Assembly: GCA_976226885.1 (NCBI GenBank)
Contig: OZ320317.1
Location: 55,242,001 to 55,306,000, forward strand
Reading direction: 5' to 3'
Length of the DNA stretch: 64,000 nucleotides
Origin: Iphione sp. A-MEVVRFRX5
Lineage: Eukaryota
The notes under the pieces are model-generated. The model did no database searches. It saw only the letters and a program-made list of their open reading frames with translations, and was not told the DNA's origin. Each line of letters starts with the position of its first letter. The stretch's first letter is position 1. Positions 28,012-59,200 of the stretch are shown piece after piece. The position numbers and the translations under genes are program-made.

Positions 28012-28069
28012 GTTTTTCGTAGGTGCGTCTGGAACATCATCACATAGTCATTTCATCATCATCACATAG

Positions 28070-29134
28070 TCATTTCTTACTACTCTTTGACTCCTTTGAT
28101 TTGTCAACATTATCAATGTTACTAGGACATTCGAAAGCTTTGTGATCAGAGTTACCACAAACCAAGCAGGCATGTTTGAAGGCACAGGACGAATCACTAC
28201 AGGTACCATTATTGAAACGATAACACACCTTTTCACTCTTATGAACGCTGTCAGCAGCTTTACGTGGCTTCACTCTATTTTTACTGTTTGCACCTTGTTG
28301 CGCTCCGCTCAACATCATATCAAAAGAGAAATGCGATCTAATGAGCTCATCATCACCAAACTTAAACTCTGACAAACCCTTCTTGCTGGCTCTTTTCCGC
28401 ATGTCAGCATCGTTGTCAATAAAAGATGAGTCTTTATAAACGTTTCTCACCCTTTTCTCAAGCAAAAACAACAAATGGTCGACGTAACCGGAAATGTCCT
28501 TCTCCTTTTTAAGGTGCCGCTTCAGCAATTTCATCGATCCAAACATAAGCTGGTCAAAATGATCGATCTTTTTCAATTTAGCAGCATATTCGATGTCAAA
28601 GTCTCTCTTCTTACCCTTTGACCGTTTTCTCTTTCTTTTCGTCTCCTCCTCAATATCAGAGGACAAAGAATCATCAGAACTAGTTTCACTCGGCACGGCT
28701 GGACCAGGCACTGGCGTGGAAACATCAACATCCGCCTCCTTCGACAATGATGACGGAGCCATTTTTGTACCACTACCATTACCATTCGAAGCCAGGAAAG
28801 CAGAGAACATAGTCTCCAACCTTCCCATCCTGTTAGACAGGTCCAAGATATCACCACTTTCAGCCACAGGAACAGACATTTCTGCCCTTTGCATACCATT
28901 CGTAGTAACCGGAGGTAAAATACCATTCACAACATCGAAATCCTTCGAAGAAACATCCTCAACAATGTTGAGATCCAGTCTACATTTTTTCCCCACAGGG
29001 GAAGCGTGTTTGCGATCACACCTGCAACAATATCTCGCCATAACCAAGCCAGTGAAACAACACGTCCACCTCCTAAGAAAATTCAGAGTGGAATAACGGT
29101 TAGTAACAATATGTTCCTTTGGTCGATACATCAT
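28070..29134 (-). CDS. gag: Ngaro ORF1/gag-like protein (likely start MARY at about 29041)
   Basis: N-terminal CRCDRKHASPVGKKC and C-terminal CYRFNNGTCSDSSCAFKHACLVCGNSDHKAFEC zinc-finger motifs typical of DIRS-order ORF1. Confidence 0.8.
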   Translation of the reverse strand: MMYRPKEHIVTNRYSTLNFLRRWTCCFTGLVMARYCCRCDRKHASPVGKKCRLDLNIVEDVSSKDFDVVNGILPPVTTNGMQRAEMSVPVAESGDILDLSNRMGRLETMFSAFLASNGNGSGTKMAPSSLSKEADVDVSTPVPGPAVPSETSSDDSLSSDIEEETKRKRKRSKGKKRDFDIEYAAKLKKIDHFDQLMFGSMKLLKRHLKKEKDISGYVDHLLFLLEKRVRNVYKDSSFIDNDADMRKRASKKGLSEFKFGDDELIRSHFSFDMMLSGAQQGANSKNRVKPRKAADSVHKSEKVCYRFNNGTCSDSSCAFKHACLVCGNSDHKAFECPSNIDNVDKSKESKSSKK

Positions 29135-30731
29135 AGATACAGGTAGCGGTTGTCATGTGGATACGCTATGTTGTCTTGGTATCCAAACAATATTCAAATA
29201 AACACCTTATTCGACATATATATAAACCATATTGAATGGATTTCGGTTACACAGGTGTGGAAATATGCAATCACAACGTTTTCATCAAGGTAGAGCAACC
29301 GTTTGAAATGGTATTTAGTCAGACAACAGTCATTAAGTGACACTATGGGAGAAAGCCAATCATTACAATGCACCTAAATCCTTAAACATTGTACATATAC
29401 TTTGTTTTATCAATTTAGGTATGTATTCCATATACAGCTGAACCCCATCAGAGTTGCAATATATTCTCATTAATCAGACCCTAACGAAATTACCAATTAT
29501 TTTACACTTTAAAATGTACTACATATCTGGCATTTGCTATCCATAACCATAATGTATTTCAAGCCATTTAAACTTAATTTATATAGAAAATAATCATAGT
29601 TAACCGGATGAGGGAGAATAAAGAAACTGTTAGGCATTAGAGTGTGTATATACAGTACAATGGAAGAGACAACAGAGCACAGAGTGAATAACAATGGTTA
29701 AAAGTAACATACACATGCAGGAAATATGGGCTGTGACATCCTAAAGGAAGTGACAACACAGCGTGGAGTGACTAACATAGGTTAAAAGCAACATACACAT
29801 GTGCGACATGCAGGCCATGGCCTCCTATAAGAAGAGAGGGCAGAGCAACCAACATAGGTTAAAACAGCATTAATTTCTTTACTTTCTACTTAAAAGGGTT
29901 GTACATTTTACTACTATGCAAGTTTTCCCTGCCAGAAGATGCATGGATAGCGATTTCGGCAACCGGATGTTTCATCATCTGTACAAAATAATGGAGGTAC
30001 TCTGGTTAATGCGGTTTGCCTGTAATTCTGTTTGTATGGAATCATTATCACATTTAGTAATATTGACAACACATTTTTGTTTATATCTAAGGTACACAGA
30101 ACTGAACCCAGTTGTAATGGCAAGCATGTCTTAGACAGGGTTCGAACTTCACAATTACCCATTGGCCATTATTTTGTAATTTTTTTTACTGTGTGAGTCA
30201 ACATGTGTTTGTCCCAGGTAAGTAATTGGGAAAATTTATTTTTCGAACCTAGCTTTCAGACTGAGGAAAACATCACGTAGGCCAAAATCAATCCGCTAAT
30301 TGTTTTAGGGGTCAATGTTAAAAAAGCACTTTCACAACAATAATAGTATTTTTGTACAGCACTATATTGAGTTCCCTGCTAAACTACATTTTTAAAAAAA
30401 GACTAAAAACAAGATCCACCTCGGGGCTAGGATTTTCGGAATTATCTAGATAAGACGATTCTATGTACCACTGCTGACTTCCTCTGATTTTTAGTATGCT
30501 CTATGCCGGTGCAACACTAAATCTGACAATAGTGATCAGCTTCTCAACATAGTTTGCACAGATTTCTACTCTGGTTTTAACGTATACCAGTCACAACTTC
30601 TATAGAAAGGTTCTAATTGAAAGGTTTTTGATTCATCATCGAATAACAGTCCTGATAGTGTAGACATTATCAGAGAATAACATTATAAGACTTAATTGCT
30701 CATTGCTCCTAATAACAAAACTATGCCTGTT

Positions 30732-33351: not shown

Positions 33352-34988
33352 CTACTTGTTGTACGTGATGTTGAAGGTGCAATTGTTAAGAGTCGGTGAC
33401 CCCGAGAAAAGGGTATGCAGGATTTCTTCGTTCTTCATAGTATTATGGACTTTATGGACCGTTTGTGTCAGCGGAAAGTCCATATCCGAATCGCCTCCAC
33501 CGCATGCTGCTCCTGCCGACTCCATCTTGATTACCGGCTGACCCACTTTTTCTGGATCAGCTGTTTCACTCTTACTGCCCGCACCATACACGGATAGTGC
33601 ATTCGACATCGTCTTTTTCACGATTTTGCTCGGACTACCCAAGTAATGCTTGAGAGAGGCAGCATTTTTGTGGCCCGTAACTGATTGGATCTACTCTACC
33701 GAAAACCCAGCACGCTCCAACGTTGTCACGCACGTTCGGAGTATGGTGTGGTTAGTGTACTTTTTTGAAAGGCCCGCCTCCTTGCTCATTGTGGCCATCA
33801 TGTTGAATAAGGTGTTGATGCCCACCGGACAGTTGTCGTACCAAGATTTCATTCCTGAGTCGATGAACTTTTTTGGCCTTTGGAAAAACGCATCACAGGC
33901 CGGGTTCAATAGATCCACGTACTTCTTGAAACTCGCCACCGGACATCGACGCGGATCTTCAGGTAGGGCGTACATTGTTTTTTCAACGTCCTCTTCGTCT
34001 TTTTTTAGGCCTGATCTCGTTTTTTCCTGTTCATTGTAACTCATTGTCACAAATTCAAGTCCCGCTGCATCCGTTTCGATTTTGAAAGAGTTGCGTTTCA
34101 GGTAACGCAACCCCTCCCTACCCCTTCGTCCGAAATGAAATAGTAACTCGAAAAACACTTTCCTCTGCAGTCCGGTCGGGGTGTCATTGAAAAGTCTCTC
34201 ATATAAGAGTGAAACATCTTCTGGTTCTATCACTGGCTTGTGACTCGTTTTATCGTTCCCGGTCCACCGGATGCGGGCCATATAGCCATCATAGGCCAGG
34301 TTGGCTTGTCTGAACGCACTGTCTTTCATTATGTTGATATTTCGGCAGAAAGGGGGTCCGACAAGATGACGTTGAATCCCACAGCGTATATTCTTGTAAG
34401 CTGACTTCGAGTACATTTCCAGATCCTTTTTTCGTACACCCGTGTAGAATCTCTCCAGAATGCCAGCGAGTTCACTATCACCGATACCCTCGAACTCCAG
34501 CAGGAGGCCCACATCCGTCAGCCAGTCTGCAAAAATAATTGCACTAAACATTACTATAGGTTATTTCAGGGTGCCCCGCCCCCTTCAAGTAAATACATAT
34601 GGCAACAATACAAACCTTGTAGGATTTTTACAGCCCACTTAGTCTGGTTGACTGTTCCTTTGCGGTTAACTTCCTGCTTTAGCGCGTTCACCTCCTCCTC
34701 TGCTGGCATATAAAAACGACCACTACCAGCCCCCTTAGGTTTTTTCTCAATATTTTCGGAATTCTCCTCCAGATCCATATCTTCTACCGCCAACAAGTCT
34801 AGTCCGATGTTGAAAGTTGGCACCGCCTCACGCTCCAGTTCATCACAGCGTACCGAGTTCTTCTGTCCCGTTAGGACATCCTGTACGTCGCACACATCCA
34901 TTTCAAAACCTTGTGGCCGATATATTTCGGTTACTTTTACGTTCCGTCCATATAAATGGCATATTTCGCCCCTCTTTGGTAGATCCAT
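33352..34988 (-). pseudogene. Crypton DUF3504/KCTD1-like tyrosine recombinase gene, 2 exons (34988-34616, 34526-33352), with in-frame TAG at 33691-33693
   Basis: Intron 34527-34615 (G|GTTTGT...TTTTTGCAG|) joins TKWAVKILQ-D-WLTD. Motifs FYTGVRKKD..Y, HFGRRGRE, CPVASFKKY, WYDNCPVG, YTNH, then after the stop IQSVTGHKNAASLKHY (catalytic H/Y) and C-terminal LNNCTFNI. Confidence 0.88.
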
Positions 34989-36380: not shown

Positions 36381-38325
36381 GATTGATTGATTGATTGATT
36401 TCTTTTATTGAGCCTCTCCGTATACAGAGCTGTTCTCGCACAATATTGATGAACAACAGGATGTACAGAATAGATTCAGTATTGGTTTTGTGTACCATTG
36501 CCACGCATTGCAAAATAAACTTCGTATACATCAATCACGTGTTTCCAGTCATCATAACACCCTTGCTTAAGAGATTCATCTGTGTCAGTAGCATATGTTA
36601 ACAGTGTCCCAGTCTACAAAGATTCAGGCAGCTACATACCAGTCCTGCGCACACTTTGCTATGTATGTAAATTGTCCATATACCTTGGGTTTTGCTAGTA
36701 TCATGTAGTGTAGTGCTGCACATACTATCTTGGAATAAGTTACTTCAGTAGTTACATACTTCCACGTCTCATTGTCTGTTTAGGACTGACTCAGCCTTCG
36801 GCACATTGCACAGGTATCGTTGCACTTTGTGTAGTCATCTCAGGAAATAGACCAGATAAGCTCGCTTTGTCACATCAATCTGTGGTCAAACCCTTCAAAT
36901 ATCCAGTAGACCAGAACAACCCACGGTTGCATTACCCCACACAGTACATAATGTCAACGAGTGTCACAGTCTGTCCAATACCTGTCATGTTGCCCCCCTT
37001 CAGCATCACAGTGTGCATCCCATGGCGCTTAATTGCACTGGCTGATCCGGTTTCCTGTTAGTTTCTCCAACTTCTTGAGGCCCTGGGGCAAACCATTCCA
37101 CATTTTTGCCCCCTCATACCTCAGAGATCTTGCATACGCACTGTTTTTGGGTTTCGCCAGTTTGACTCGCGGACCAGTCCCCGTCCTTGTCTGGTGTCTG
37201 GTAGCCATCGGAAACTGTCCGTGGGCGACCAGTCGGTGTACAACCGCCAGCCCCCTAGTGCGGATGATCTCTTCAACCGTCCCAATGCGCAGTATCTCTC
37301 TCAGCCTGACTGCGCTTAGGAAATCTCCCACCTGAAGTGCCATTCTCGAGCACCTATTCAGGTGTATCTGGAGATCTCTGATCAGCCTGGGTTTGCACCC
37401 GAAGTAGACTGATCCATTGTAATTCAGGTGACTTAGTACCAGTGCTTTAAACAGGATGGCGCGGCACTTCATCGGGATTATCTTTTTTGCTCTGGCCAAC
37501 ATAATTGATATCCCCCATGCTTTGGCCTTCACCTGCTTCACACTACTCCTGAAGGTTAGCCCCGGATCCACCAGGTACCCCAGGAGGTTCAGGTTTTCCG
37601 GCCGTTGGATTTTTTGACCGTTCACTGTGAGGTCTAAGTCGAACTTGCTTGCTCTGCCAAGCGCAATGTACTGGCATTTGGCTTCGTTTAAAATGAAACC
37701 ATTCTCATTGCACCAGTTGCTCACCGTCCTTGATGCTGTCTGCGCTACAGCGCGCAGGCGCAGCATGTCACCAGAAGAGCAAACCACAGTTAGGTCGTCC
37801 GCGTAGAGAGTTCCAGTGGCCCCCACAGGCAAGCTCCTTACAATGGAATCCGCAGCTAATGTGAAGGCCAAGGGGCCTAGCACGGAGCCCTGCGGGACTC
37901 CGTACTTGAGATTGCGCACCATTGACTCCCCCTCTCCGCAGCGCACAAACTGGCGCCTGCCACTCAGATAACTCCGCATCGTTTCAATCCATCGACCACC
38001 AATGTTCGCATCCCTAAGCCTCTGGAGTATCAGTTCGTGCTGCACTAAGTCAAAGGCCTTACTAAAGTCGTACGCAATAGCGCACACATAGCGGCCGTTG
38101 TTCATCTCATCCCAGCATTTTGACAGGATTCCGTTTATGGCGGTTTCCGTGCTACGGTTTGGCACAAAACCATGCTGGTGTGCGCCAATAATGCCTTGCT
38201 GAAGCAAGAACGGTCGGAGATGCTATGCAAACCAGGTTTCCCATAGTTTGCCTGGCAGTGGTAGTATTGACACTGGTCGGTAATTACCTACCACTGCCGC
38301 ATCTCCCTTTTTATGTACCGGCAAA
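36381..38325 (-). mobile_element. 5'-truncated CR1/L2-group LINE (RT region, 3' UTR, (AATC)5 tail)
   Basis: PVHKKGD..NYRPVSILP (in-frame TAG at 38223-38225), QHGF, YDFSKAFD, GVPQGSVLGP, YADD, LLGY, C-terminal WNGLP (ORF 37029-38207). Minus-strand AATAAA (36404-36409) is followed by (AATC)5; linking the tail to this copy is inferred. Confidence 0.85.
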
Positions 38326-41289: not shown

Positions 41290-42702
41290 TCATCCCATCT
41301 CTGAGGGATACAGGTAGAGCGTTCCAATCTTAGATACCAGTGTTTATAAAGGATTGGGCATATTTGACTGTCCTAGGCTTCATTTTCATGAGCACCCTAC
41401 CTATACTGTGCCTTGCAGTCCTCAGTCCCTGCTTAGTAAGCCTTGATCTACCATTCTAGCTTTAAGACTGATTCTCTGACTCCTTCCCCTATCCTCCAGG
41501 GCCTCAAGACCCAGTCTCCTTCTCAGGTGCCTAGCTGAAGCTCCCCCTTGGGTTATTGGCTACTACTAGGCTAAGGCACCTATTATTCACCTTGGATTTG
41601 ATATTTGGTTTTCTTGCTATTTCCCTGTAGGCATAAGAGCCCATAGTCGAAGATGGGGCATAGGAAAGCCTTAAATATACGTGTCCTATCGTTATAATTC
41701 AACAAATGAGCGACCTTCGCTAATACCACTGTCCTATGTTTTGTTTTTCTCTTTATCCCATTAGCTAGAGCTGCCCAAGTCAATCCTTGGTCGACTCTGT
41801 ATCCCTACAGATCTACCTCTGTACATTTCTTTAACTTTATCCCACTGTACCTCCAAGTCAAGGTCGATCGGACTAGACTTCCCCAAAAAGATGTACTGGG
41901 TTTTCTGGGTGTTGCGTGAAAGCCCCTGATCTCCACACCATTCTATGATATCCTTTATAGTCCTAGCCAGTTTCAGCTGTAGGGCAAGGATAATGCTCGT
42001 GGAGCAGTAAACAGAGATGTCTGCATAAATTACAGAGTCGAGTATGATCAGACTGGCTGGTGTCAAATTTACTACAAGTGAGAAGAACAGTGGGGCCAGA
42101 TGACTCCTTTGTGGCACACCTACCTTTAGCTCTCTACGAGATGATCTACAATTGTTGCAGCTCATGTACTGACTCCTTCCTATTAAGTATGATTCAAACA
42201 TCTGAGCATAGTGTTGCCAACTCCACAGCTCATCAGGCAGTGCGAAACAACTTGATCAATAAATCAAACGCTTTGGATAAATCAAACATGATTAATCCGA
42301 AGTATTTACCCTCATCGACCGAGGTGCTTGTAGAAATGTTGCAACCACTGTACTAGTCTCCCCCCCTTGTCGGCAACCGTGTTGGCTGGGGAGAAAAAAT
42401 TCTGTTCCTCCAGAAAGGCTACTAGCTGTCGATGTGCTAACCTTTCAATTAATTTCCCCACATATGGGATTATGGAGAATGGACGGTAGTTTTTTACTGT
42501 TGTACTAGCTATTTTTTCAATATAGGACTGACCCCAGACGCTTTCCACTCCTCCAAGAAAATCCCTTGTCTTAAGGAGATATTAATTAGTCTATATAGAG
42601 GGATCAGGTAAAGTAATAAAGCATCTCCCAGCACTATGGAGGACACCCCCTTCATTCCAGTAGGTTTTTTAGATTTAACCTCATCAATTCCTTCCTTAGT
42701 AC
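41290..42702 (-). pseudogene. Degenerate CR1/L2-like LINE ORF2, 3' part (split by the Gypsy insertion)
   Basis: KNYRPFSIIP..KLIERL, FESYLIGRSQ..GVPQRSHLAPLFF, YADIS, C-terminal SF..WNALP; many stops and frameshifts. Confidence 0.8.
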
Positions 42703-43577
42703 TGTAATTAGCGTGTTTAATTCTCCACTTGGCAGTATCCAGCTATGACTGCTAGTATCCTGGCTTAGTTGCCTTACTAGTATTGCTCCACTAGGTAATC
42801 CTCAAGCCCACCCTTAAGGTTGCTCCAAGTGGTTTTGTGTTCCTATCATTCCCTGAAGAGACAAGTGCCACAACGTAATCCAAGTTCAGACTGACTTTAT
42901 TTGCCACACTGGGCTCTTATTTATAGCAATCCACAGTGTCATGTGATCAGGCCATGTATCAATGTATGGAATAAAACTGCTACAACATGTTCAGTGTCAC
43001 TCTGTTCCACCAATCAATGCACAGGCAAAAGCTACAAAGTAATAGGGGCCTGGATTACCAGGGCCCAAGGTCACCCCTAACTTTTTCTTTGCTATGAATA
43101 ACGGTGGTGCCACGGTTCTTTCTTAAGTCCAGCCTTTAGGGTCACAGAGTGCACCTAATCTAGCCGTGGCACCACGACTTATCTTATTCAACTGTAATAC
43201 CGAGGTCACCGAGTACATCTTATCAAACTGTGGCACCACGACTCTGTACACTTATTACCAGTACCAGGGTCACCGAGTACACTCCATCTGGCCGTGGCAC
43301 CACGATTTATCTTATTCAACTGTAATACCGAGGTCACCGAGTACATCTTACCAAACTGTGGCACCACGACTCTGTACACTTATTACCAGTACCAGGGTCA
43401 CCGAGTACACTCCATCTGGTCGTGGCACCACGATTTATCTTATTCAACTGTAATACCGAGGTCACCGAGTACATCTTACCAAACTGTGGCACCACGACTC
43501 TGTACACTTATTACCAGTACCAGGGTCACCGAGTACACTCCATCTGGCCGTGGCACCACGACTTATCTTATTCTACA
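42703..43577 (-). repeat. 3' LTR (875 bp) containing a 128-bp (2 x 64-bp) tandem array
   Basis: Matches 52889-53763 with 2 substitutions seen by eye. Confidence 0.97.
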
Positions 43578-43590
43578 CTCTCCCCTCCTT
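43578..43590 (-). promoter_or_regulatory. Polypurine tract
   Basis: AAGGAGGGGAGAG directly abuts the 3' LTR. Confidence 0.9.
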
Positions 43591-44072
43591 AAAACACAGT
43601 CCCCCTCGTGAAACAGGAGTCAGGGTACTTACCATCTAGCCGGGCATATCGGGGAGTCCTCCTTCAACTTCTGGGGTAGATATAGTCTTATAAGTTGTTG
43701 GCCCCCCCCCCCCGTGCTCCCTGATTGGGGTCAAACAGTCCATCCTTGAATAGATACTCAGGTTTCAATTCTTCCTTATTTTTGTGAGGTACAGTCCTCT
43801 ACTTTTGGCCTTAACTCTCTTGTGTAGCCACCCCTCACAGAGGGTGAAATCCAGTGGTCAAAAATTTTTTTTTTTGGAGGTACAGTCCTCTTTTGTTTCC
43901 TGCTCACGAACATCCAGAATAGCAATCCCCCATTGGGGGCAGGAGTACAGCTTGCTTACCAAGCAACAAACAAAGAACCTTCAAAATATATTTCTTTTTT
44001 TTTTTTTTTTGGATACAGTTCCTTTTATGCTTTCCTTCTAAAAGATTAGCTTAACAGTGACTCATCCCTTCT

Positions 44073-45464
44073 TTACTCTGTAGAACCTTCTCGGGCGTCA
44101 CCCGCCTCGGTGCTTAACTCCTCCTCTTCATCATCTCCCCAGACGTCCTCAAGACTGAGGAGGGACTGCAGGGGCGGCGCATGGTTACAAATGTCCGCTA
44201 AGGTGGGGTGTCGGGCTTGATGAAGTCGATGAGCCTCCTGGGCCTGCTGGGTCCACTGGAGGAGCTCTGTGTTTACCCGGCGGGGTCCTCGGGAGGGTCC
44301 GGGTTGGGTGTCGCGCAGGGCGGCTTCGGCGGCTTCAATGGTTTTGTTATTGCGAGTGAGGAGGTCGGCCGGGTCCCCCCACTCGTTGGCTGTCGGTATT
44401 TCCAGTCCCGGCAGCAGAAGAGCAGGTCGTTTTCTTAGGGGGCCTAGCAACGTCCCTGGCAGCCGGTCCCCCTCCTCGGCAAGCTGAAGCACCCACGCCA
44501 GCGAAGCACTCGTCATCATGCGTTGAGCTGGTGTCATCTCCCCCCAACAGGGTGGCGGCCAGGTAATCGTCGGGGGAAGGCGCACAGCCGCTGGCTCGAA
44601 ACGGCTCCTCATCACGGGTATCCTCGGATGGGCGACTCCATCCAGCATGTCGCGGACTAACCTAGTGGCGGGGTCAACCCACCCAGGGGGGACGTCCGCA
44701 CGGGCGAGGCGGACCAATCGCCCTTCCAACAACAGTGGGAGGTTACCAGCAGCAGTTGGGTGGTCGGTCTCTCCAGTGGCGCCGGTATCCCTAACACCGA
44801 CCCCTTCTAGTTGGGCAGTGGCACCTTCTGGCTCGGCGGATGGCCCGGCCCGAGGAGCGGCCTCCCAGGAAGGGCCTGGCTGAGGTGAGCCAACAGGGCG
44901 GTGGGCATCCTCTTCGGAGTCCGGTGTCGGAGGTAGTCGTGGGGTTGCCAATTCCAATGCCCTTTCAGGTTGAGGATCAGCTAGATGGCATTTCCGTAGC
45001 GGTAGAGGGGCCGGGGCCCTCCGCGATGAGGCAGCCAGCATGGCCTCGGCTTCCTCTGGTCCGAGGTAGTCTCCCCGCTGGCGTAACTCTCGGGCCCACA
45101 GAATAATTTCGGTGATCTCGTCATCGGGAGCCTCAACTGTCGGCGCCGGGTTCGCATCATATAAGCGGCGATAGGGGCGCTCCACCATCCCCAGGTTCAC
45201 CGCCCATGGATGGTACCGGCGGTGGTGGGATACCCAGGTTTGGTCCTCGCTGAGTGTCTTCGGACACAGAAAACAACGGACAAAACGCCTGCGCTTTCCT
45301 TTATGAAATTCGTCGTCGTGGCGCTTCATGGAGTCGCCAGGGTAGAAGGGGCGTCGCTTCCCAGCGACCTCACACTTGGGGCAGAGCTTGGTCCCCTCCG
45401 GGAGGGGGTCGTCCTTGTCCAGGGTGCGCGGGAGAGTGGGGCCGTCGATCTTATGGCGAGGCAT
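44073..45464 (-). CDS. Gypsy accessory ORF (463 aa from ATG 45464): two N-terminal C2H2-type zinc fingers, Pro/acidic middle region, acidic tail
   Basis: CPKC-x17-HDDEFH and CFLC-x12-HHRRYH. The intact 1.4-kb ORF sits at the env position but shows no signal peptide or TM segment. AGA-ATG context. Confidence 0.8.
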   Translation of the reverse strand: MPRHKIDGPTLPRTLDKDDPLPEGTKLCPKCEVAGKRRPFYPGDSMKRHDDEFHKGKRRRFVRCFLCPKTLSEDQTWVSHHRRYHPWAVNLGMVERPYRRLYDANPAPTVEAPDDEITEIILWARELRQRGDYLGPEEAEAMLAASSRRAPAPLPLRKCHLADPQPERALELATPRLPPTPDSEEDAHRPVGSPQPGPSWEAAPRAGPSAEPEGATAQLEGVGVRDTGATGETDHPTAAGNLPLLLEGRLVRLARADVPPGWVDPATRLVRDMLDGVAHPRIPVMRSRFEPAAVRLPPTITWPPPCWGEMTPAQRMMTSASLAWVLQLAEEGDRLPGTLLGPLRKRPALLLPGLEIPTANEWGDPADLLTRNNKTIEAAEAALRDTQPGPSRGPRRVNTELLQWTQQAQEAHRLHQARHPTLADICNHAPPLQSLLSLEDVWGDDEEEELSTEAGDAREGSTE

Positions 45465-46305
45465 TCTGGCCGCGGTGCCACCGTTTTTTAGGGTCCAGGT
45501 GTTTCGGGGTACCACGGTCACACACGGCGAAAACAAGGTTTAGGCACACAGATCCCGTGTAGATTACGTATCACAGGAGAATAATAACAATCCTGGGAGG
45601 GCAATCTTATTCAAAGTGAAGGAATTACCTGACGTCTCACGACCGGTCCGCCCGTGGTGCCACGGATTTTTCTTGTCGCTTCGCTGGGGCTCGATGTAGG
45701 TTTTCTCCTCCTTCCACGAAATTGGCAGATAGATCTTTGCTTTCACCTTTTCCTGGTACAGAGTTGACCGGGGGCCCTGTCTGTCCTGTTCCGGGAGAAA
45801 CACGGGAGGGGGGGGGGACAAATCCAACAGTCGATGCTGATCTTCTGGAGCAAACCGTGGTGCCGCGACTTCTCCCAAAGTTTTCGTTTTTATTCGCAAA
45901 CGTTCCTGCCCGTGGCACCACAGTTATTTTAACCCTTTTCTTCTCTTTACGCGGTTTAAACTTGTCGTGCGTTAATTTTAAGTCACCTCCACCCTTCACT
46001 TTTATCCGTGGCACCACGGCTATTTTTCCTCGCAGCCGGATCCAGAGCGAGGCAGACGCGGATGTTGACGTTATCCATTTCCGGCCCAGCCCCACTCGTG
46101 GTGCCACGATTCGTTACGTGATGTTCTTCCTGTAATATTTCCTGTCTCAATCCACAAAAGTTCCCCGGGGCGTGGCACCACCGTTATTCATGACTTGTTC
46201 CTCCTCGTTGCGTGTCGAATCCGTTTCCCCGCGGCGTAGTTCACAAATTGCGTCATAAGATTTTCGGCCCGTGGCACCACGATTATTTTTCTGGCCTGCG
46301 GCAGC

Positions 46306-46313
46306 TATATAAG
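46306..46313 (+). promoter_or_regulatory. TATA box of the antisense gene inside the Gypsy
   Basis: TATATAAG, an Inr-like TCACTC about 30 nt downstream, then Kozak ATC-ATG-G at 46373. Confidence 0.7.
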
Positions 46314-46372
46314 GGGGCGCTGCACTCGACCCGCCGTCACTCGCTGACTCGGCCTCGACGAGGATTGTCATC

Positions 46373-46766
46373 ATGGACTACTGGCCACCTGCCTACTTGA
46401 TGGGATACCCCCCCATGGAGGACAGGTAAGCTTCCCTACCTCAGTGTATTTATCTAGAGGGGTTAACTGGAGAGCCCCCCCTCTTGCTTCCTCCCTCCCA
46501 GGGTAGGGCCTACCCTTATGGTTGGGGGGTGAACCTCCCCCTTCCTCCCTCCAATGGGGTGTACCTCCCCTGCAAGCCCCCCCTTTCCTGCTCACCAGTG
46601 GAGGTTCTCTCCTTTTACCCTTGCCTACCAAGTGTTGTCAGAGACTTTACCTGTTGGGATGGTTGCAGTTGTGTTTGCTGTTACAAGATTCCACCCTCTC
46701 TTGTTTTCAGGTGTGGCAGCCATATTCTCCCGGAGTTGGTCTGGGTGAGTCCAATCTTCTTCTTCC

Positions 46767-46804
<38 letters not shown>

Positions 46805-47541
46805 CATCGCTGCTCTCTTCCTCTTTTAGATCTCAGCCCCCGGACTGGTACTACCGGGCGCTGGACATCGGCACCCCGGGGCCGACAATCAGGATCTTCG
46901 GCCTCTACCCGATTCTTACAGAGCCACTGTTTGTCCCAGCCCCCGGCACCATCCGGCTCTTTGGGCCGAACCATCGGGTAGATGTCTCTGTCTACCCCCT
47001 TGAGCCATCAGTCGTCGACCCCCGATCTTTCACGTCACCTTCGTCCGTTCCAAGGAGCCCGTAATACGCGCCCCGCACGGAAGTGGTCTCCCCGGAGATC
47101 AGCCCCTGGATGGTAACATCGTACTTCACCACGCTGGGTGATCCCCCCGAGCCGTCTCCTCGCTGGTACCGGGGGGGGTCTATGACGCCGCCCGGCCTCT
47201 CACCGGCCGCTTCATCCAGCCGTTCTTGGTCTCCAGGGAGCTGGACCACCGACCGGTTGGACCCCTGGGATCCGCTCTCCAGTACGGACTCCGGTCGCCC
47301 GAGTTCGGCCGGGTCTATCAGCCTGCTGGCGGACGCTCTCTTCGGGCCGTGCTCGCCCTCATCTTCTTCCAGTGGCACTACTCAAGACACGCCTTCACGC
47401 CCCACTCCGGTTGGCTCACCGGCTACCGGCCCAGCACTCGGCAGGATTCTGTTGGATGACCTGCCCGACGATATTCTGCGGGACTGGTTTCCCGAGGTGC
47501 AACCCGGGGACTCGGCCAGCTATCCGATCATCTTAGAGTAG
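46373..47541 (+). CDS. Antisense spliced accessory gene of the Gypsy (exons 46373-46425, optional 46711-46744, 46830/46837-47541); Pro/Ser-rich product of about 255 aa with in-frame TAA at 47062-47064
   Basis: Donors AG|GTAAGC and TGG|GTGAGT; acceptors TTGTTTTCAG| and T-run..CTCTTTTAG|. Exon 1 + exon 3 gives MDYWPPAYLMGYPPMED-R-SQPPDWYYRALDIG..., in frame with ORF 47083-47541. Confidence 0.62.
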
Positions 47542-47650
47542 GGAGGCCGGACTATATACTTCCGAACTGTACATATCATACTTCCGAACTGTACATATCG
47601 TCCTCTAGTATATGTGTTCTGTACTCCAGACTGAAAATACGTTACTCTGT

Positions 47651-47656
47651 AATAAA
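47651..47656 (+). terminator. Polyadenylation signal of the antisense gene
   Basis: AATAAA 110 nt after the TAG, followed by a GT-rich downstream element (TGTGTTCAGTGTT). Confidence 0.6.
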
Positions 47657-48397
47657 TTGTTCTTTTATACCTTGTATACTTGTGTTCAGTGTTCCGTCTA
47701 TTACTGTAGACTATAACTCACTGGTTTTTTACTTGGTGATCATTGACCGTCTTTTCTCCCCTTCATCTAGAGGACAAGGACCTCACCTTGGCTTCACTTC
47801 TAGAGGATATGGAGCGTGACTTGGCTCTTCTTCTACCAGAGGACAAGGACCACATCTTGGCGTTACTTCCAGAGGGAACGGCCCGCATCTCGGTTTCCTT
47901 CTCTCTGTCTCTTCTGGGCTCTTTCGAACTCCCGTTCTGAGTTCCAGGAGGTCCACATCTCCTTACCATTTCCCCCCCAACTCCTCTTGACCAGTGCTCT
48001 TGCAGGGTGTTCAGTCATTTTCTCCCTCCACGGAGATTTTCAGGTGCCCTAGGGGATGGTCGCCTCCCCCCATGAACCTTTCCGGGTTTCCAGCTCGCGT
48101 CTCGGGGCGTTCATCATTCCTCCCCCAGGAGCCTCTTTCTCTTGTTGCACAAATTGCAACTTCAGGTGAGCTCCTCGTACCTCCGACCATATTTCCGGCA
48201 CCTGCAGGGATCCGTGTCTCCCTCTGCCCTGGGCTGTTTTGAGTGTCTACGCACCCTCGGGCTGCCCACCTCGCCCTCTCCTGGGACTTTCAGGCATCTT
48301 GGTACCTCAGGCTTCCCATGTCACCTACCCTGAACATTTTTCAAGAGCACTTCAAGAGATGGGGGTCTCCCGTTCGCCGATTCGCCGAGGCATCTTT

Positions 48398-51300
48398 CTA
48401 TAACCCCTCCTCCTTCGAATCGTCTGTCCCTGCCCGGTCTCCGTCCGTCGGGAGATGGGCTCGCCGCCAACTGACTATCCACCGTGGTAGATTCCCACTG
48501 CAGTAGCGCCGCAAGCGGTTGCAATGAACTACCTTCGGTCTCGCCTTTCGCGTGCGTTGAACGACATACCGTGCATCGTCCAATCGTTTGACAACCAGCC
48601 AGGGTCCAACCCAGGGGAAGTAGGTCTTCAGGCTTTGGCCTCTTGGGGGTTGGGCTTCGTGTAGCCAAACGACGTCCCCTTCCCGAAGTTGAGTTCCCAC
48701 GACCCTCCGGTCGTACGCCCGTCCCTGGGTCTTAGCAGCTCGTTGGAGATGGTGTCGCACGGTCTTGAAAGCGACTTGAAGTCGACGACTCACTTCAGCT
48801 ACCCTCTCCGGGAGGGGTCGCTCATCGGGACAATGTTGCGGGAACCCAGCCCAGGCATGTACCGGTAGCACGACCTCTCGTCCGAACATTAGGAGGTTGG
48901 GGGTATACCCCGTACTAGATTGCGGGGAGGCCCTATATGCCATCATGAGGTAGGGTAAGGCCTCATCCCAATCGTTCTGTGTCTCATAGCAGTGCGCTTT
49001 CACCATGCGCCCAACAGTGTGGAAACTCCTCTCTATAAATCCATCGCTCTGTGGGTGACGCGGGGTCGTACGGGTCTTCTTAATTTCCAGAAACTGGCAG
49101 AGTGCTGTTAGGACCTCACTGCAGAAGTTCGTGCCCTGGTCGCTGTGGATTTCCAAGAAGCACCCATATCGCAAGATAACTTCCTCAGCAAGGAGCGTAG
49201 CCACCCGGCCAGCCTTCTGGTCCGGCATGGCGAAAGCCTCCAACCACTTCGTAAAATGGTCACCCACCATCAGTATGTATTTGTTTCCCCGCCGAGTCTC
49301 AGGCAGGGGGCCGGCCACATCCATGGACCACCTCTCCATTGGTTCTCCCGGCAGGTAGGTCACTAATGTCGTTTGGGGCTTGTACGGGTTGACATTCAGC
49401 AGGGCGCAATGACAGCGGCGGCAGAAGGCCTCAACCTCTCGCCTCATCCCAGGCCAATAATAGGGGAGGGCAATCAGGTAGGTGGTACGATCTGTTGCCA
49501 AGTGACTCCCCGTGCGACCTGCATGCACTTCTTTGATGGCTGCATCTCGTCGGCTGGCGGGGAGTATAACCTGTAGCCTAGACGGCTCATCCCCGATCCC
49601 ATACCAGCGGCGTTGTAGGAGTCCGTCATGCACCACTAGCCGGTCCCACTGTCTCCAGAGGGCTTTAGCGCAGGCGGGCAAAGCCGAGACCTTGTCCCAC
49701 AAGGGCCGGTCATTCTCGTTCTCTTTCAGTCACAGTACAGGCCCTATTGCTTCGTCTAACAGCTGCTCCCGGCGCAGATCTCGTGAGCCAGCGTCAGTGA
49801 TTTGACTTCGTGTGACCACCCGTACCGTGGCTGATATGGGCTCCTCTCGCTCCAGGTGAGGCTGTTTGCACTGTCTGCAAATGCGCCGAGAGAGCGCATC
49901 TGCGTTTGAATTCAGGCGACCGGCCCGATGCACGAATTGTACTTGGTACTGGCCGATTCTCTCCAGCCATCTGGCTAGTTGTCCCTCAGGGTCCTTTATC
50001 CTCGTCAGCCAGCTCACCGCCCCATTATCAGTGCGCACAGTGACGTCTTGCCCATACAGGTAGAAATGAAAATGCTTGAGTGCGGCCACCACGGCCAGCA
50101 GTTCCCTTCTCATGACGCAGTACCGCCGCTCGGCCTCACTGAGGCTCCTGCTGAAGTAAGCTAGCACAACTTCTTCGCCCGACTGCTCTTGAGCCAGGAC
50201 GGCCCCCAGGCCAACATTGCTGGCGTCGGTGTCCAGGTAATACCTGCCTTCTGCATGAGGATAACCAAGGACCGGGCTGGTGCTGAGTGCGCGTTTGAGG
50301 CTCTGGAAGGCAGCCTCTTCTTGGGAGCCCCAGGAAAATCTTACTCGTGAGCTGGTCAGCCGGTTAAGCGGGGCTGCTAGATCGGCGAACTGGGGAACAT
50401 GTCGGCGATAGTAAGAGCAGATCCCAAGGAAAGCACGGACGTCTGTCGTGCATCGTGGGGTTGGCCACTCAATGATGTCTTTTGTCTTCACAGGGTCAGT
50501 AGCTACTCCTTTTTGCGACACCACATGGCCTAGAAAGCTGACTTCCTCTAGGAACAACTGACACTTCGTAGGCTTTAGTTTCAGGCCGGCACTGGCGATG
50601 CGGCTCAGTACATGGTCCAAGCGACACAAGGTCTCGTCAAAGTCCCGACCAAACACCAGAATGTCATCCAAGTACACCAGGCATTGTTCCCAGGCTAAAC
50701 CACGAAGCACAGTGTCCATCAAGCGTTCGAACGTGGCCGGAGCATTCACCAGACCGAATGGCATTACGGTGAACTCATACAGGCCCACAGACGTAGAAAA
50801 GGCCGTCTTCTCTTGGTCATCGGGGTGCATTCGTACTTGCCAGTACCCCGACGCCAGGTCTAATGAACAGAAATAGCGAGCTCCGGCCAGGGTACTCAAT
50901 GAGTCGTCAATTCTCGGTAGGGGGTATGCATCGACCTTAGTCTGCTGGTTGAGCTTTCGATAATCTACGCAGAACCGGGTGGTGCCGTCTTTCTTTCGCA
51001 CCATGACCACTGGGCTGGACCAAGGGCTATTACTCTCCTGTATCACCCCCAAAGTCTTCATCTCTTGTACTAGCTCCCGCTCCTCCTTCCTGCGTGTCAA
51101 CGGGAGGCGTCTGGGAGGTTGCTTGATGGGGTGGGGGTCGGTCAGGTAAATTCGGTGTTGAACGATATCGGTCCTCCCCAGGTCCCCCTTTGTCTGCGCA
51201 AACACGGCCGCATGTTTCCTGAGCACCTTGGCTAATGCTTCTTGTTCTTCTTGCTCCAAGCGCGGGGCGGTCTGAGCTAGCAAATTCTTTAACACTGCTT

Positions 51301-52054
51301 CCACTTCCCTCCGAACAGCACAGACTCTAGCCGAGTACCCTCCTTCTTTGTTCTCTAGGCAACTGGCAGGGTAACCCATTGCCACCAGGGTACCCTGCGT
51401 CAATGTAACTTCTTGGTTTTGGAGATTCCACAAAGGTAATGCAGTTCTGACAACACTTCGAATCCCAAAGATCCCTCTTCTCAATTGGTCCTCCTCTACT
51501 CCCTCCACTAGGAAGGCATCACCACCCCCATTAGTTAGAGGGACTGCTATCCCCTCTCCCGGGGGAAGGGTAACGTCATGGGCTAAACGCAAAGGGACCC
51601 GCTCTCCCAGAATCTGTCGGGCTCCTATCCCCGGGCCAAATCGAACCCTCCCCTGTGCTAAATCTATAACTGCCTGGTGTTGGTTGAGGAAATCACTCCC
51701 CAGTAGACCCTCTTCCCCAATGTTGGCAAACAGGAAAGGATGAGTAAACTGTTGACCCGCTATCTCAACCTCCAGAATCTCTCGGCCCAATGTGGGAATA
51801 ACGTGCCCCCCTGCCCCAGTAATACGGACATCCCCGCCTTCACCATCTAGGCCAGGGACCACCCCCGGGTTAATAATGGAAACTTCAGCCCCCGTGTCAA
51901 TGAGAAACAAGTATTTGTCACCCCTCACGCTTACCTGCAAATGTGGCCCCTGGCCTTGTTCCATTATCTGCCCCGTAGGGGTCTGTTCAGCCAAGCCCTC
52001 CTGGCCTACTGGGCTGGCTGCTGGGCGTTTCCCTGGGTAGGGGCCTGTGGGCAA
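48398..52054 (-). pseudogene. pol: Gypsy Pol (PR-RT-RH-INT) with a single in-frame TGA at 49730-49732 upstream of the integrase
   Basis: LIDTGA protease, YLDD RT, DTDAS RNase H, integrase D (SMDVAGP), D (HSDQG), E (GFIER) and GPW motif. ORFs 49730-52054 and 48398-49702 are in the same frame. Confidence 0.93.
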
Positions 52055-52857
52055 TCCCGCTTAAAGTGGCCTTGTTGTCCACATTGGTAGCATCCCGTAA
52101 ATCGCGGTTTCCGAGGTTTTCCCTCCTCCTGGGCCTTCTCTCCTTCACGGAACTTGCGTAATTCCTGCGCAATGATCTCCTCCACTTCCTTCTTCCAGGT
52201 CGGAGTGACTGGGGGAGCGGGCGGCTGTTGTACCACATTAACTGTCTTCGCCCGGAACCGCTCTTGGGTTTCCACCACCTGGATAGCATTGTCAAGGGTG
52301 GTGCATTTTGCTTCCAGGCATTTGAGATGCAAGGAGTCCGCCAAGGCCCTCTGAAAGGCCGCCACGGCTGCCAGTTCCCTGGTCTCCCCGGTTACATCGG
52401 GATAAGCTGTGCGAACTAGCCTCCTTACCCGGTCGGCCAGGTCTCGGATGTCCTCGTCCTTCTGTCGTCTCACTCCGGACAGTTTCTGCATCGCTACCAC
52501 CCGATCCCTGCGTCGGCCGAATCGCCGCTCGAGGGCTGCCACCCTTGAGGCGTAATCTCTCTTGTCATCCGCGGGTAGGTCTCCGTAGAACATGCGTGCT
52601 GTCCCGGTGAGCGACAAAGTCAGAGCCGAACATTTGGTATCCTCGCCCCAACGGCATGCGTCCGCCCACTCGGAGAATTGGCCAATCCAGCTGTCCCAAT
52701 CAACAGTCTTCCCATCGAAGCGCTCGGGTTTCAGGGTGTTCATCTTCAATGGCTCCTCTGGGGCAATCTCAAAGTGTTCGTCTTCTTCCTCGGCGGGTGC
52801 AGGACTAGTCACCCGAATCTGAACCTCATCATCCACTGAGACATACGCTGTAGCCAT
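52006..52857 (-). CDS. gag: Gypsy Gag (283 aa)
   Basis: KPERFDG..W..W..QF capsid-like start; CYQCGQQGHFKRDC zinc knuckle. Confidence 0.93.
   Translation of the reverse strand: MATAYVSVDDEVQIRVTSPAPAEEEDEHFEIAPEEPLKMNTLKPERFDGKTVDWDSWIGQFSEWADACRWGEDTKCSALTLSLTGTARMFYGDLPADDKRDYASRVAALERRFGRRRDRVVAMQKLSGVRRQKDEDIRDLADRVRRLVRTAYPDVTGETRELAAVAAFQRALADSLHLKCLEAKCTTLDNAIQVVETQERFRAKTVNVVQQPPAPPVTPTWKKEVEEIIAQELRKFREGEKAQEEGKPRKPRFTGCYQCGQQGHFKRDCPQAPTQGNAQQPAQ
52027..52033 (-). promoter_or_regulatory. -1 ribosomal frameshift slippery site G GGA AAC with a downstream stem-loop (51988-52020)
   Basis: The heptamer is in the gag frame inside the gag/pol overlap, pol is in the -1 frame, and a 6-nt spacer precedes CAGCCAGCCC...GGGCTTGGCTG. 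Confidence 0.8.
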
Positions 52858-52867
52858 CCTGTCTGGG

Positions 52868-52887
52868 GAATCCCACTTCTGACACCA
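52868..52887 (-). promoter_or_regulatory. Primer-binding site complementary to the 3' end of tRNA-Leu(CAA)
   Basis: TGGTGTCAGAAGTGGGATTC begins 1 nt after the 5' LTR. The eukaryotic tRNA-Leu(CAA) 3' end is GAATCCCACTTCTGACACCA. Confidence 0.9.
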
Positions 52888-52888
52888 G

Positions 52889-53763
52889 TGTAATTAGCGT
52901 GTTTAATTCTCCACTTGGCAGTATCCAGCTATGACTGCTAGTATCCTGGCTTAGTTGCCTTACTAGTATTGCTCCACTAGGTAATCCTCAAGCCCACCCT
53001 TAAGGTTGCTCCAAGTGGTTTTGTGTTCCTATCATTCCCTGAAGAGACAAGTGCCACAACGTAATCCAAGTTCAGACTGACTTTATTTGCCACACTGGGC
53101 TCTTATTTATAGCAATCCACAGTGTCATGTGATCAGGCCATGTATCAATGTATGGAATAAAACTGCTACAACAAGTTCAGTGTCACTCTGTTCCACCAAT
53201 CAATGCACAGGCAAAAGCTACAAAGTAATAGGGGCCTGGATTACCAGGGCCCAAGGTCACCCCTAACTTTTTCTTTGCTATGAATAACGGTGGTGCCACG
53301 GTTCTTTCTTAAGTCCAGCCTTTAGGGTCACAGAGTGCACCTAATCTAGCCGTGGCACCACGACTTATCTTATTCAACTGTAATACCGAGGTCACCGAGT
53401 ACATCTTATCAAACTGTGGCACCACGACTCTGTACACTTATTACCAGTACCAGGGTCACCGAGTACACTCCATCTGGCCGTGGCACCACGATTTATCTTA
53501 TTCAACTGTAATACCGAGGTCACCGAGTACATCTTACCAAACTGTGCCACCACGACTCTGTACACTTATTACCAGTACCAGGGTCACCGAGTACACTCCA
53601 TCTGGTCGTGGCACCACGATTTATCTTATTCAACTGTAATACCGAGGTCACCGAGTACATCTTACCAAACTGTGGCACCACGACTCTGTACACTTATTAC
53701 CAGTACCAGGGTCACCGAGTACACTCCATCTGGCCGTGGCACCACGACTTATCTTATTCTACA
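52889..53763 (-). repeat. 5' LTR (875 bp)
   Basis: Offset 10186 bp from the 3' LTR; TGTAATTAG...TTATTCTACA. Confidence 0.97.
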
Positions 53764-54400
53764 GTACATCTTCCCTCACAGGCTCTTCCATCTAATCACC
53801 AGTCACTTCGGCACATAGAGTTGCTTTCGGGGGATTTGCAAGTGCTAGCGACCTAGTGGCTGTGACAAAAATGTCTGGTGCGACATGAGAGTCGATTTCC
53901 TCTCCATCTTCAAGCAGTCGAATTGGTCTGGGTACTTTTGTTACCTCTAACACAGTTCTATTCAGTACCTCCCAATAGTCCTTAGAGGACCTACATGATG
54001 GCAGTTGTTTCCCAACATGAGCACATTTCACTTTTCTAATTTTACTCCTCACTAGGTTTTTGTAGAATTGCTAACTCGCAAACTGTCTATGCACCCCTCT
54101 GATCTATAGACTTTATTGTACGCCTGTTGTAGTGAGTATAGCCCTGTCAACCATAACATCATGCAGTGACACTGCATAATGCATGCCATATACACCATAT
54201 GCATGATGGATACTTCACGGGAAGGCACGATGGACATGCATATGGATTGGGATGGTCTTCAGACCTTGGCCTCTTGGTTGAAACCATGTGACACAAGGCA
54301 CTCCAATTGACCGATCGCTTTTTGTGAGTGACAGTTGAGTCTAGCCAACCACAGCACATCCTACAAAAAGCGTGGGAACCTTGAGCATAGACAAACAAAG
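53764..54400 (-). pseudogene. Degenerate LINE ORF2, upstream (EN-RT linker) part, continuing across the Gypsy insertion
   Basis: FYKNLVRSKIRKVK..KDYWEVL linker-like segments. Sequence on either side of the GTAC duplication reads as one LINE. Right boundary approximate. Confidence 0.6.
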
Positions 54401-56933: not shown

Positions 56934-59200
56934 CTAGTAATCCTTACATGATAGATCTAGTGATAATATTTTAATACACTGATTGAACTCATGTGGGTCT
57001 GTAATATTCCTAAATAAGGGATCGAGCTTGTTCCAGAGATCAGCACCCATATAGATAGCACTGTTTTTATACAGATTACTCTTGGGTGTTTCTTGTTTTA
57101 TAACTGGACCATCCATAGACCTAGTGCCAGTATCAGATTTGAGTGGTAAAAGGTTAATATTTACCGACCTAAACATTGTGTCGAGCATAAAATAACAGCG
57201 TCGAGTATAGGTACTTTGAACTCCAAGGTTTTGATGTAAGTCTCTGGTACAAATGCCACGTGTCTTTAAGTATCTTTTAGATTACATTCTAAATATAATC
57301 CTCAGTGCCCTGTTTTGCATGATTTGAATCTTATCCAGCATCTTCTTACTGCAGGTTGATAGGTAGATAGTACGGTTGTCAATGATTGGTTGAATCATGA
57401 CTTTATAAACGGTTAGGGCTACATCAGGAGGAATGAATCCTTTTACCTTATTCAGGAGATACATCTTAGTTGACAATTTTTTGCATAAAAGTTTTGCCTC
57501 ATGCTCGAATCTAAGTTGACTATCTAGTGTCACACCTAAATATTTGTAGGTTTCAACTTGTTCAAGCATCTTATTATACAAGGTAAGTACTAAATTATTG
57601 TCTTGTTTTCCCTTTTTGTTGCTAATTAGCATAACCTTAGATTTGTCCGTATTAATAGCCAGTCTGTTGTGGTTGCACCAGTTCTCAACTAAGGTGCAAG
57701 CTATACTTAGTTTCCTGTTGAGTTCCTCTAGTGAGTTGCTCGTGGTGTAGATCACAGTGTCATCTGCGAAAAGTACAGCCAGTTCATTAATGAACCTGGT
57801 TATACCATTTATGTATAATGAGAAAAGGAGTGGGCCTAAAGTTGAGCCCTGAGGAACACCACAACTGATTGGCAGGGGGTTTGAGAGCACTCTGTTACAC
57901 AGTACTCTTTGCTGTCTACCACTCAGGTAATTTTCAAACCAATCGTGTGCCGCACCATCTATTGCAAATTCCATACGTAACTTATCAAGTAGGATACCAT
58001 GATTCACAGTATCGAAGGCCTTTTTTATATCCAGAAATAGCAGACCTGATAATTTGTTTTCATTAACAGCAAGATATTGATCATTTAATACTTTAATGAT
58101 TGCAGAATGCGTAGATCTCTGATGTCGGAATCCAAATTGGGCCTGAGATAGCAGTGAATCTTCTTCTAAGTATGCATGTAGCTGATTATATATTAATTTT
58201 TCAAGGATTTTGGCAAATAATGGCAGTAAGGAGATTGGCCTGTAGTTGTTTGGGTCCAGTGATGAACATGACTTATGAAGTGGAATAACAACAGCCGATT
58301 TCCAGGCATTTGGAATTGACCCAAGCTGAACTGACTTGTTTAGTAGCCTTGTCAGTTGGTTGATTGATTGACCCATTATGATTTTTAAGAATCATGTATT
58401 GATTTCTGGAACGCAGGATGCCTTGTTGGTATTTATTTTCTTGATTAGATTAACAACATCATTGCAGCTAAACTCAGTTCTATGAATGCTGTTGGTATTA
58501 GTCTCAGAAGAATGAGATTGAGCAGTATAAGATGGGAGTGGGACAGAGTTCATGATGTTTCGACCACACAAGGAGAAGTGTTTGTTAAATGTTTCAGATA
58601 CTGTGTCTCTCATATCATCATTATTGTGAAGTTTTATAGTATTTTTACTACCTTTGCTGATTCCGAGAATTGGTTTTAGATTTTGCCACATTTTTCCCGG
58701 ATAATTCTTATTTTTATTAATCACCCTCTTTATATGGAACTCCTTGTGCAGTCTCATGCTTTTTATTATATCATTACATAATTTTCTCGAAATGTTCCAG
58801 GTGTCTTCATCTTTTCTCTCTTTGGCCTTTTTAAGATAGTAGTTTTTAAGTCTTATTTGTTTTATCAATTGTTTTGTAATCCATGGATTTGTATTATTTT
58901 TAAAATTACAACTTTTTGGGGGAAAGAATTTGTCAGCTGTTGAGTGTATGTTATTCAAGTAGTTTTCCCAAGCTTTTTCAATATTGTTATTGTTATAAAG
59001 CTGATACCAATTTAATTCATTCAAGTAGTCACGTAGTTCCAGAGTGTCATAACTCTCATACCCTGTTCTATAATGTATACGACTGTTACTCATATTCATT
59101 GATGTGTTTTTAGTTTTTTTCTTAATAATAGAAGTGGCATAGTGGTCAGATAGATTAATTCTGAGGACACCCGTAGTACTTATGTATTTTATATTCGAGA
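56934..59200 (-). pseudogene. CR1-group LINE ORF2 (EN C-terminus, linker, RT, C-terminus) with nonsense mutations
   Basis: LSDH endonuclease motif at about 59150; NPWIT, NYRPISLLP, QFGFR, DIKKAFD, GVPQGSTLGP, FADD, YLGV, WNKL. ORFs 58392-59099, 57282-58376 and 56934-57188 are one frame broken by TGA (58392) and TAA (57282). Confidence 0.9.

Follow-up and report, generated by a model that had tools for sequence, protein, structure and literature searches.

A palindromic dyad common to the LTR and the accessory-gene spacer of an animal-type Ty3/Gypsy retrotransposon: a putative selected protein-binding site

The window, i.e. the 64-kb stretch of DNA analysed here, contains a Ty3/Gypsy retrotransposon in which the palindromic dyad CGTGG-CA-CCACG is kept nearly invariant in exactly two settings: the U3 region of the LTRs and a spacer between two divergent accessory genes, the sense ORF3 and an antisense spliced gene. 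Judged from its sequence, the dyad is a selected putative binding site common to the LTR and the accessory-gene promoter, and it very probably acts in transcription. The initial annotation had described the LTR copies; the third dyad cluster in the spacer and the neighbouring zinc-finger ORF are parts absent from it. All evidence comes from one copy of the element.

The element is a young retrotransposon of ~11 kb on the minus strand (Table 1). Its LTRs differ at 2 positions only and end in TG...CA, and it has the target-site duplication, primer binding site and polypurine tract expected of an LTR retrotransposon. The pol domains follow the order protease, reverse transcriptase (RT), RNase H and integrase, as in Ty3/Gypsy elements. 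The gene order of the Gmr1 clade, as given in the available part of its description (PMC8220671), was excluded, since the integrase follows RNase H here. The best solved relative of the RT was Ty3 RT (E 6e-91). Scores of 308 bits for Ty3, 199 for caulimoviral and at most 128 for retroviral RTs place Ty3 nearer than the retroviruses. The integrase found 306 protein matches at E ≤1e-20 with a best identity of 49%; among the 120 matches listed, the named ones were mostly animal at 35-44% identity and included spider, mussels, goby, sea cucumber, crab, shrimp and snail, which suggests an animal host. An in-frame stop (49730-49732) cuts off the integrase part of pol from the protease-RT-RNase H part, and a slippery-type heptamer, G GGA AAC, lies close to the end of gag. 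The distance from pol to the 3' LTR is 4.8 kb and carries the two accessory genes.

Table 1. Positions of the features of the element within the window
Feature	Position	Strand	Description
Target-site duplication	left 42699..42702, right 53764-53767		4 bp
3' LTR	42703..43577	-	875 bp, 2 mismatches to 5' LTR
LTR core promoter	42890..42925	-	TATA 42925, initiator-like TCAGT, its A 33 bases on
CCAAT box	43010..43014		sole one in LTR
Extended nuclear-receptor half-site	43066..43073	+	CAAGGTCA, which we take to be of NR5A/FTZ-F1 type
Promoter-proximal dyad	43103..43114	+	opposite orientation
U3 array	43138..43573	-	7 x 64-bp subunits alternating A/B, 128-bp higher-order unit
Polypurine tract	43578..43590	-	
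Hairpin-like repeats	43774..44026	-	three, short, each beside an A run; 3' untranslated region
ORF3	44073..45464	-	463 codons from ATG, intact
C2H2-like fingers	45210..45383	-	two; residues 28-54 and 64-85
Internal spacer	45465..46300		836 bp, non-coding, behind pol
Candidate splice acceptor	45466..45467	-	one base before ORF3 ATG
Candidate splice donor	~45628	-	
Antisense core promoter	46306..46341	+	TATA 46306, initiator-like TCACT, its A 33 bases on
Antisense coding exon 1	46373..46425	+	53 nt
Antisense intron	46426..46829	+	GT-AG, 404 nt, 37-T pyrimidine tract, frame kept
Antisense exon 2	46830..47541	+	
AATAAA	47651..47656	+	followed by GT-rich stretch
pol, integrase part	48398..49729	-	H2C2, rve, p58 C-terminal domain
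pol, first part	49730..52060	-	protease, RT, RNase H
gag	52006..52857	-	single CCHC knuckle
Primer binding site	52871..52887	-	TGGTGTCAGAAG..., presumably for tRNA-Leu
5' LTR	52889..53763	-	875 bp; same array (53324-53766 by TRF), 8 dyads

The palindrome copies reported for the 3' LTR at 43165, 43229, 43293, 43357, 43421, 43485 and 43549, in steps of 64 bp, were reproduced, as were the oppositely oriented copy at 43103, with a step of 62 bp to the first array copy, and the mirroring in the 5' LTR, where all 8 dyads recur at a distance of 10186 bp. The described alternation of the first base held as well: four of the seven array copies are full 12-bp dyads and three start with T, which leaves the outer pair imperfect. 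TRF agreed with a 128-bp higher-order unit (period 128 at 96%, period 64 at 69%). The motif GGTCACCGAGTACA, said to be carried by each subunit, was exact in six of seven subunits per LTR, but the promoter-proximal subunit (43140) has 2 mismatches. The array was placed correctly where U3 enhancers sit, as it occupies the first 450 bp of U3, begins at the LTR end by the polypurine tract and stops ~180 bp above the CCAAT box, TATA and initiator. Every subunit contains the box RGGTCA-N3-AGTRCA, then 12 bp and the dyad, and in the A subunits a further site adjoins the dyad; we take the box to be of nuclear-receptor type and the adjoining site to be of GATA type. One of the only two LTR mismatches, a substitution at 53547 in the 5' LTR, falls inside a dyad.

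When the A and B subunits were compared in register, they matched at all 26 box positions and at 12 of the other 38 (Fisher p 6e-9, with boxes picked after the fact), and none of 200000 permutations yielded two such identical runs. The inter-box distances of 12 bp and 26 bp are both preserved despite shifted filler. Subunits of the same type differ at 0-3 of 64 bases and the promoter-proximal subunit at 16-17; the near-identity within types suggests that the higher-order expansion was recent and that the A/B split is older. Such an array might also be a neutral tandem amplification, or the dyad an RNA hairpin. Tandem arrays are described as common in retrotransposons in the available parts of two reports (PMC11963269, PMC3286476), and the recent expansion, with 61-64 of 64 identical positions within a type, is consistent with neutrality. 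However, the boxes are perfectly conserved between diverged subunits, and copies outside the array are dispersed, with unrelated flanks and in both orientations. A hairpin loop of 2 nt is unable to close, and the 5' U3 of LTR elements is not transcribed, both of which argue against an RNA hairpin. These readings are already largely refuted and appear very improbable.

The dyad is strongly enriched and confined to the element. With up to one mismatch, the decamer occurs 25 times in the 64 kb, against 3.17 +/- 1.83 expected and a maximum of 8 in 100 shuffles. All 25 matches lie inside the element, 24 of them in three clusters, and eight fall in the internal non-coding spacer (45472-46280). The 12-mer (up to one mismatch) is found 8 times per LTR and 7 times in 45465-46300 (9 if two mismatches are allowed), where a Markov null gave a mean of 0.005 and a maximum of 1 in 2000. 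At one mismatch the 12-mer was absent from both accessory genes, from gag-pol, from the 3' region and from the 52.9 kb of flanking DNA, a flank that is too short to tell much. Among the dispersed 10-mers of the window, the dyad clusters most strongly; in 26 other Gypsy-type loci (104,792 bases), no dispersed 10-mer cluster exceeded 4 copies.

In the spacer, dyads are located at 45653, 45856, 45911, 46007, 46097, 46171 and 46270, with weaker ones at 45471 and 45505. They are dispersed, occur in both orientations and lie 55-203 bp apart. Similarity between their flanks ends at ~10 bp, with a mean identity of 0.25-0.27 beyond, which indicates that the spacer dyads are no by-products of tandem copying. 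The exception is the copy at 46171-46191, which is identical over 21 bp to 43094-43114 at the promoter-proximal dyad of the LTR. The CpG o/e ratio of the spacer is 1.11, or 1.02 after masking of the sites, compared to 0.55-0.66 in the flanks; the LTR, with 0.53, is not CpG-rich.

Two earlier assumptions about the reading of the site had to be abandoned. The 2-bp centre had been regarded as a free spacer, but all 21 GTGG-NN-CCAC sequences in the window carry TG or CA there. Helical phasing that places the sites on one DNA face is no general need either, given the irregular distances of the internal sites (Rayleigh R 0.19 at 10.5 bp). The recurrence of the dyad in the spacer, its invariant centre and the unphased internal copies together point to a putative protein-binding site under selection. 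The dyad is hence best described as a long pseudo-palindromic candidate protein site with a read centre, which a dimeric binder may occupy. Its flanks are slightly AT-rich (0.60 vs 0.48, p 0.03).

The sense accessory gene, ORF3, lies in a frame of 488 stop-free codons, a length reached by none of 500 shuffles. Its product consists of two C2H2-like fingers, a basic linker, a Pro-rich middle, a predicted helical C-terminal part and an acidic tail. The fingers show C-x2-C...H-x3/4-H pairs in tandem, as in the C2H2 pattern. In a search of 1.84 billion proteins, the N-terminus had a sole match, to a multi-C2H2 protein (P0001, E 2.1e-6), and the PDB sequence matches were C2H2 proteins as well, at non-significant values of E 0.31-5.3. 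Atlas feature matches included C2H2 sets, with a recognition of 1923, below the 2300 mark; residues 235-463 gave no usable match there. The Pfam C2H2 models did not match ORF3 even at E 10, and the fingers are divergent from typical C2H2. Structure models were of low confidence, with a pLDDT of 53 for the single-sequence model addressing the C2H2 fold, whose fold search gave no match, and of 39 for the other. No ORF3 relatives were found among 8000 scored candidates or in viral contigs. An Env or errantivirus identity of ORF3 was rejected: no Pfam env model matched, and the absence of a hydrophobic span (maximal 19-residue hydropathy 0.62) argues against a membrane protein such as Env.

The ORF3 reading frame starts 7 bases from the weakest dyad and 190 bases from the closest strong one. 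Nowhere else on the minus strand of the internal region is AG absent for as long as in the 127 nt that lead up to the ORF3 ATG, which suggests a splice acceptor at that position. A TATA-initiator pair directed at ORF3 was absent from the spacer.

The divergent antisense gene has such a pair. The window contains 133 TATA-like words, of which seven are paired with an initiator; three of these seven lie in the element, in both LTRs and in the antisense promoter, and share the spacing of +33. The roles of the LTR core-promoter elements are presumed from consensus motifs. The antisense TATA is found 26 bases from the last spacer dyad, and the shared 21-mer is oriented alike to the TATA of the LTR (169 bp) and of the antisense promoter (115 bp); outside the 21-mer, no homology was detected between the two promoters. 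In exon 2 the first stop occurs at 47062-47064, giving 95 codons in total, and the frame is open on to 47541 (254 codons). The AATAAA behind it has no second copy on the plus strand from 43600 to 48400. Searches of Pfam revealed no family or domain match for the antisense product, and residues 1-125 had no relatives among 31 candidates. Past the first stop, the stretch 47430-47541 is acidic and leucine-rich without a Pfam match, and we take it to resemble the start of an F-box or else an activation motif. Between the end of the antisense gene and pol there are tandem duplications at 47556-47599 (22 bp x2) and 47751-47875 (~56 bp x2). In the LTR, AATAAA (42896-42901) is located directly above the initiator, so that transcripts from the 5' LTR would lack it; the R region of the element is probably very short.

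We propose that the dyad may be the element's own operator, read by the self-encoded ORF3 as an activator, a reading whose probability we place only just short of an even chance. A basal start driven by the host, either from the nuclear-receptor-type and GATA-type boxes of U3 or from the CpG-rich spacer, would provide some ORF3 mRNA. The ORF3 protein, with its two C2H2 fingers and acidic tail, would pair up on the dyad and raise the output of the spacer promoter, resulting in positive feedback and in expression of the antisense gene. ORF3 would next act on the 8-site array of the LTR and switch on gag-pol, in the manner of foamy-virus Tas, or in the manner of VANC if silencing marks were removed. 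The site would have been present in the ancestral unit before this was duplicated into the 64/128-bp array, with boxes and spacing kept by selection. The acidic tail would suit activation. A point against ORF3 as the binder is the small number of Arg residues at base-reading positions. According to the finger code as we assume it, these positions are Pro, Ser and Arg in finger 1 and Glu, Thr and Ser in finger 2, i.e. one Arg in six, with an acidic second finger and a poor fit to a G-rich site; a loose reading of the code fits the outer half-site, but post hoc.

These atypical finger residues would be accounted for if a host transcription factor, e.g. a dimeric factor of germline or stress response, read the dyad and co-activated the three transcription units. 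The element would have picked up the site in U3 and in the accessory promoter to have these units switched on jointly. ORF3 would then serve otherwise, in RNA or protein binding, chromatin or export. This explanation is the main rival and only slightly less probable than a self-encoded binder. It is favoured by the nuclear-receptor-type box, which is LTR-specific: 14 of its 15 matches in the window are the 14 LTR subunits, the remaining one lying elsewhere. Retrotransposons with tandem sites for host factors are known (PMC3286476, available part), and the motif of plant Sireviruses occupies the same two locations with no known self-encoded binder in the accessible text of PMC2829016. That precedent, with the same layout and an Env-like extra gene, makes a self-encoded binder unnecessary as an explanation. 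In Fusarium, promoters of a gene cluster carry this decamer with an identical centre, as far as the available part of PMC4198257 describes them; this is most likely a convergence, and it indicates that cellular factors are able to read such a site.

Against a host factor, our literature search on the decamer gave no animal factor with this invariant site of 10-12 bp, and among the 30 listed of 52 papers that contain the decamer, only the Fusarium one has more than two occurrences. T never follows CCACG (0 of 33 readings, with redundant LTR copies), so the site has no ACGT core, and the ACGT-core binders XBP1/CREB3 and E-box proteins, with consensus sites as we assume them, were rejected. A host factor would also leave the finger gene beside the operator as a coincidence.

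Alternatively, another product of the element, the antisense protein, might bind the dyad, or ORF3 might be a repressor or insulator that limits copy number. The single clear TATA-initiator pair of the spacer, directed at the antisense gene, and the like orientation of the 21-mer to both TATAs agree with this, and antisense ORFs of plants have been put forward as DNA binders (PMC11963269, available part). However, the antisense product is without a recognisable domain and its frame is broken by a stop in the present copy, and the acidic tail of ORF3 would rather fit activation than repression. Both variants are unlikely.

The arrangement resembles several known systems. The repeated motifs of Sireviruses, plant Ty1/Copia elements, are palindromes of 10-20 bp in many copies that sit in the LTR above the TATA and above an extra 3' gene, in a CpG-rich region with a suspected internal promoter; four of 13 elements without the extra gene have the motif in their LTRs (PMC2829016, as far as its available text goes). 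Here, too, copies of a palindrome cluster above the TATA of the LTR and above an extra gene. In contrast to those plant Copia elements, the present one is a Gypsy element with animal-type relatives, a CGG-CCG core is not required, the extra gene is C2H2-like instead of Env-like, and a second, antisense spliced gene uses the same spacer, next to LTRs of low CpG o/e (compared with the accessible part of PMC2829016). The element works like the Sirevirus motif in layout and is not a member of that group; the precedent makes the layout less novel.

With foamy viruses, whose Tas (Bel1) binds elements in the internal and LTR promoters (PMC517496), the element shares a sense 3' accessory gene, sites in U3 and in the internal promoter beside that gene, and the proposed feedback switch (PMC517496, PMC13220597; available parts). 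Unlike ORF3, which is a candidate binder, Tas is a proven one, and foamy viruses are true retroviruses with env. VANDAL elements encode VANC, and a short motif has amassed, partly in tandem, in their non-coding regions; ORF3 would be the corresponding candidate. VANDALs are DNA transposons of Arabidopsis, their motifs are non-palindromic and 8-9 bp long, and demethylation was demonstrated for them (PMC5735166, accessible portion). In mechanism, the element may be analogous to Tas or VANC, and it is a member of neither group.

Antisense or additional ORFs, with a proposed regulatory role, are described for Grande, RIRE2, Retand and Boty, and plant elements often carry antisense ORFs to which no function is assigned (available parts of PMC7264820 and PMC11963269). 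A long region between pol and the LTR and an antisense gene with its own promoter are shared with the present element. Those elements, however, are of plants or fungi and carry TRP28 or other domains, and a paired sense zinc-finger gene or a shared operator is undescribed in the text available from these sources. Further reports, as far as available, cover other ORF3 types or background and mention no zinc-finger ORF3 with a shared operator (PMC5408684, PMC6431247, PMC6338049, PMC8220671, PMC12859917, PMC13269885, PMC3286476). Our literature search, which covered few subscription journals and repeat-database reports, yielded no Gypsy element of an animal that encodes a DNA-binding regulator of its own.

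What appears novel is an animal-type Gypsy element whose adjoining extra gene is a candidate sequence-specific binder, so that the gene of a possible DNA-binding protein adjoins a possible operator within one element. We tentatively consider, at somewhat less than an even chance, that this is a 'complex' animal Ty3/Gypsy element, with its own sequence-specific C2H2 regulator acting on a palindromic operator that is private to the element and lies in U3 and the internal bidirectional promoter, and with a spliced antisense gene from that promoter that tunes or counters the regulator. With the same reserve, such an element could represent the logic of Tas or of Tax/HBZ, or an anti-silencing of the VANC type, arisen independently outside the retroviruses. 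If true, a self-regulating loop like that of foamy-virus Tas or of VANC would exist in an animal-type Gypsy element and self-encoded transactivation would not be peculiar to complex retroviruses. The element would then control the solo LTRs of its family as a regulon within the host genome, and ORF3 and the dyad would be a compact orthogonal switch. The literature treats as unsettled what additional ORFs do for LTR retrotransposons and which factor reads palindromes of the Sirevirus type (PMC7264820 and PMC2829016, available parts).

Among 25 metagenome loci with 25-43% identity there were no decamer copies and no comparable finger ORF, and the scan of viral contigs with the motif pattern found none. 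The same pattern was found at 79 prokaryotic loci; none had a tblastn match to gag, pol, integrase or ORF3, and all were regarded as unrelated. Scans of viral contigs with pieces of pol gave nothing or one distant element, L105, which by eye appears to be plant Tat/Retand-like; related short repeats behind its pol and in its terminal region (5970-6220 and 8560-9100) are a faint parallel in layout. Rfam and tRNA scans had no hits.

The predicted stems of the three hairpin-like motifs at 43774-44026 (T run on the plus strand) are weak; the motifs may serve RNA export or stability. The pre-insertion site (42698-42702 joined to 53768 onward) matches 10 bases of the end of the nuclear-receptor-type box of the B subunit and its spacer, by chance or through a target preference. 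The region around the element is a nest of mobile elements. RT-coding remnants lie near both sides (41761-42255 and 57282-59225). A tyrosine-recombinase retrotransposon (24954-29219, minus strand), presumably of Ngaro type, has RT and phage-integrase ORFs and split direct repeats of 145 and 57 bp. At 33691-34560 and 37029-38222, an RT ORF is followed downstream on its strand by a DUF3504/QRICH1 ORF (Crypton-type recombinase); both may belong to a single retroelement with an unusual recombinase, or they may be separate neighbouring elements. A cluster of tandem repeats with units of 118, 31, 21 and 33 bp extends over 8566-11271, and by eye a stretch at ~9870-10400 resembles a decayed integrase.
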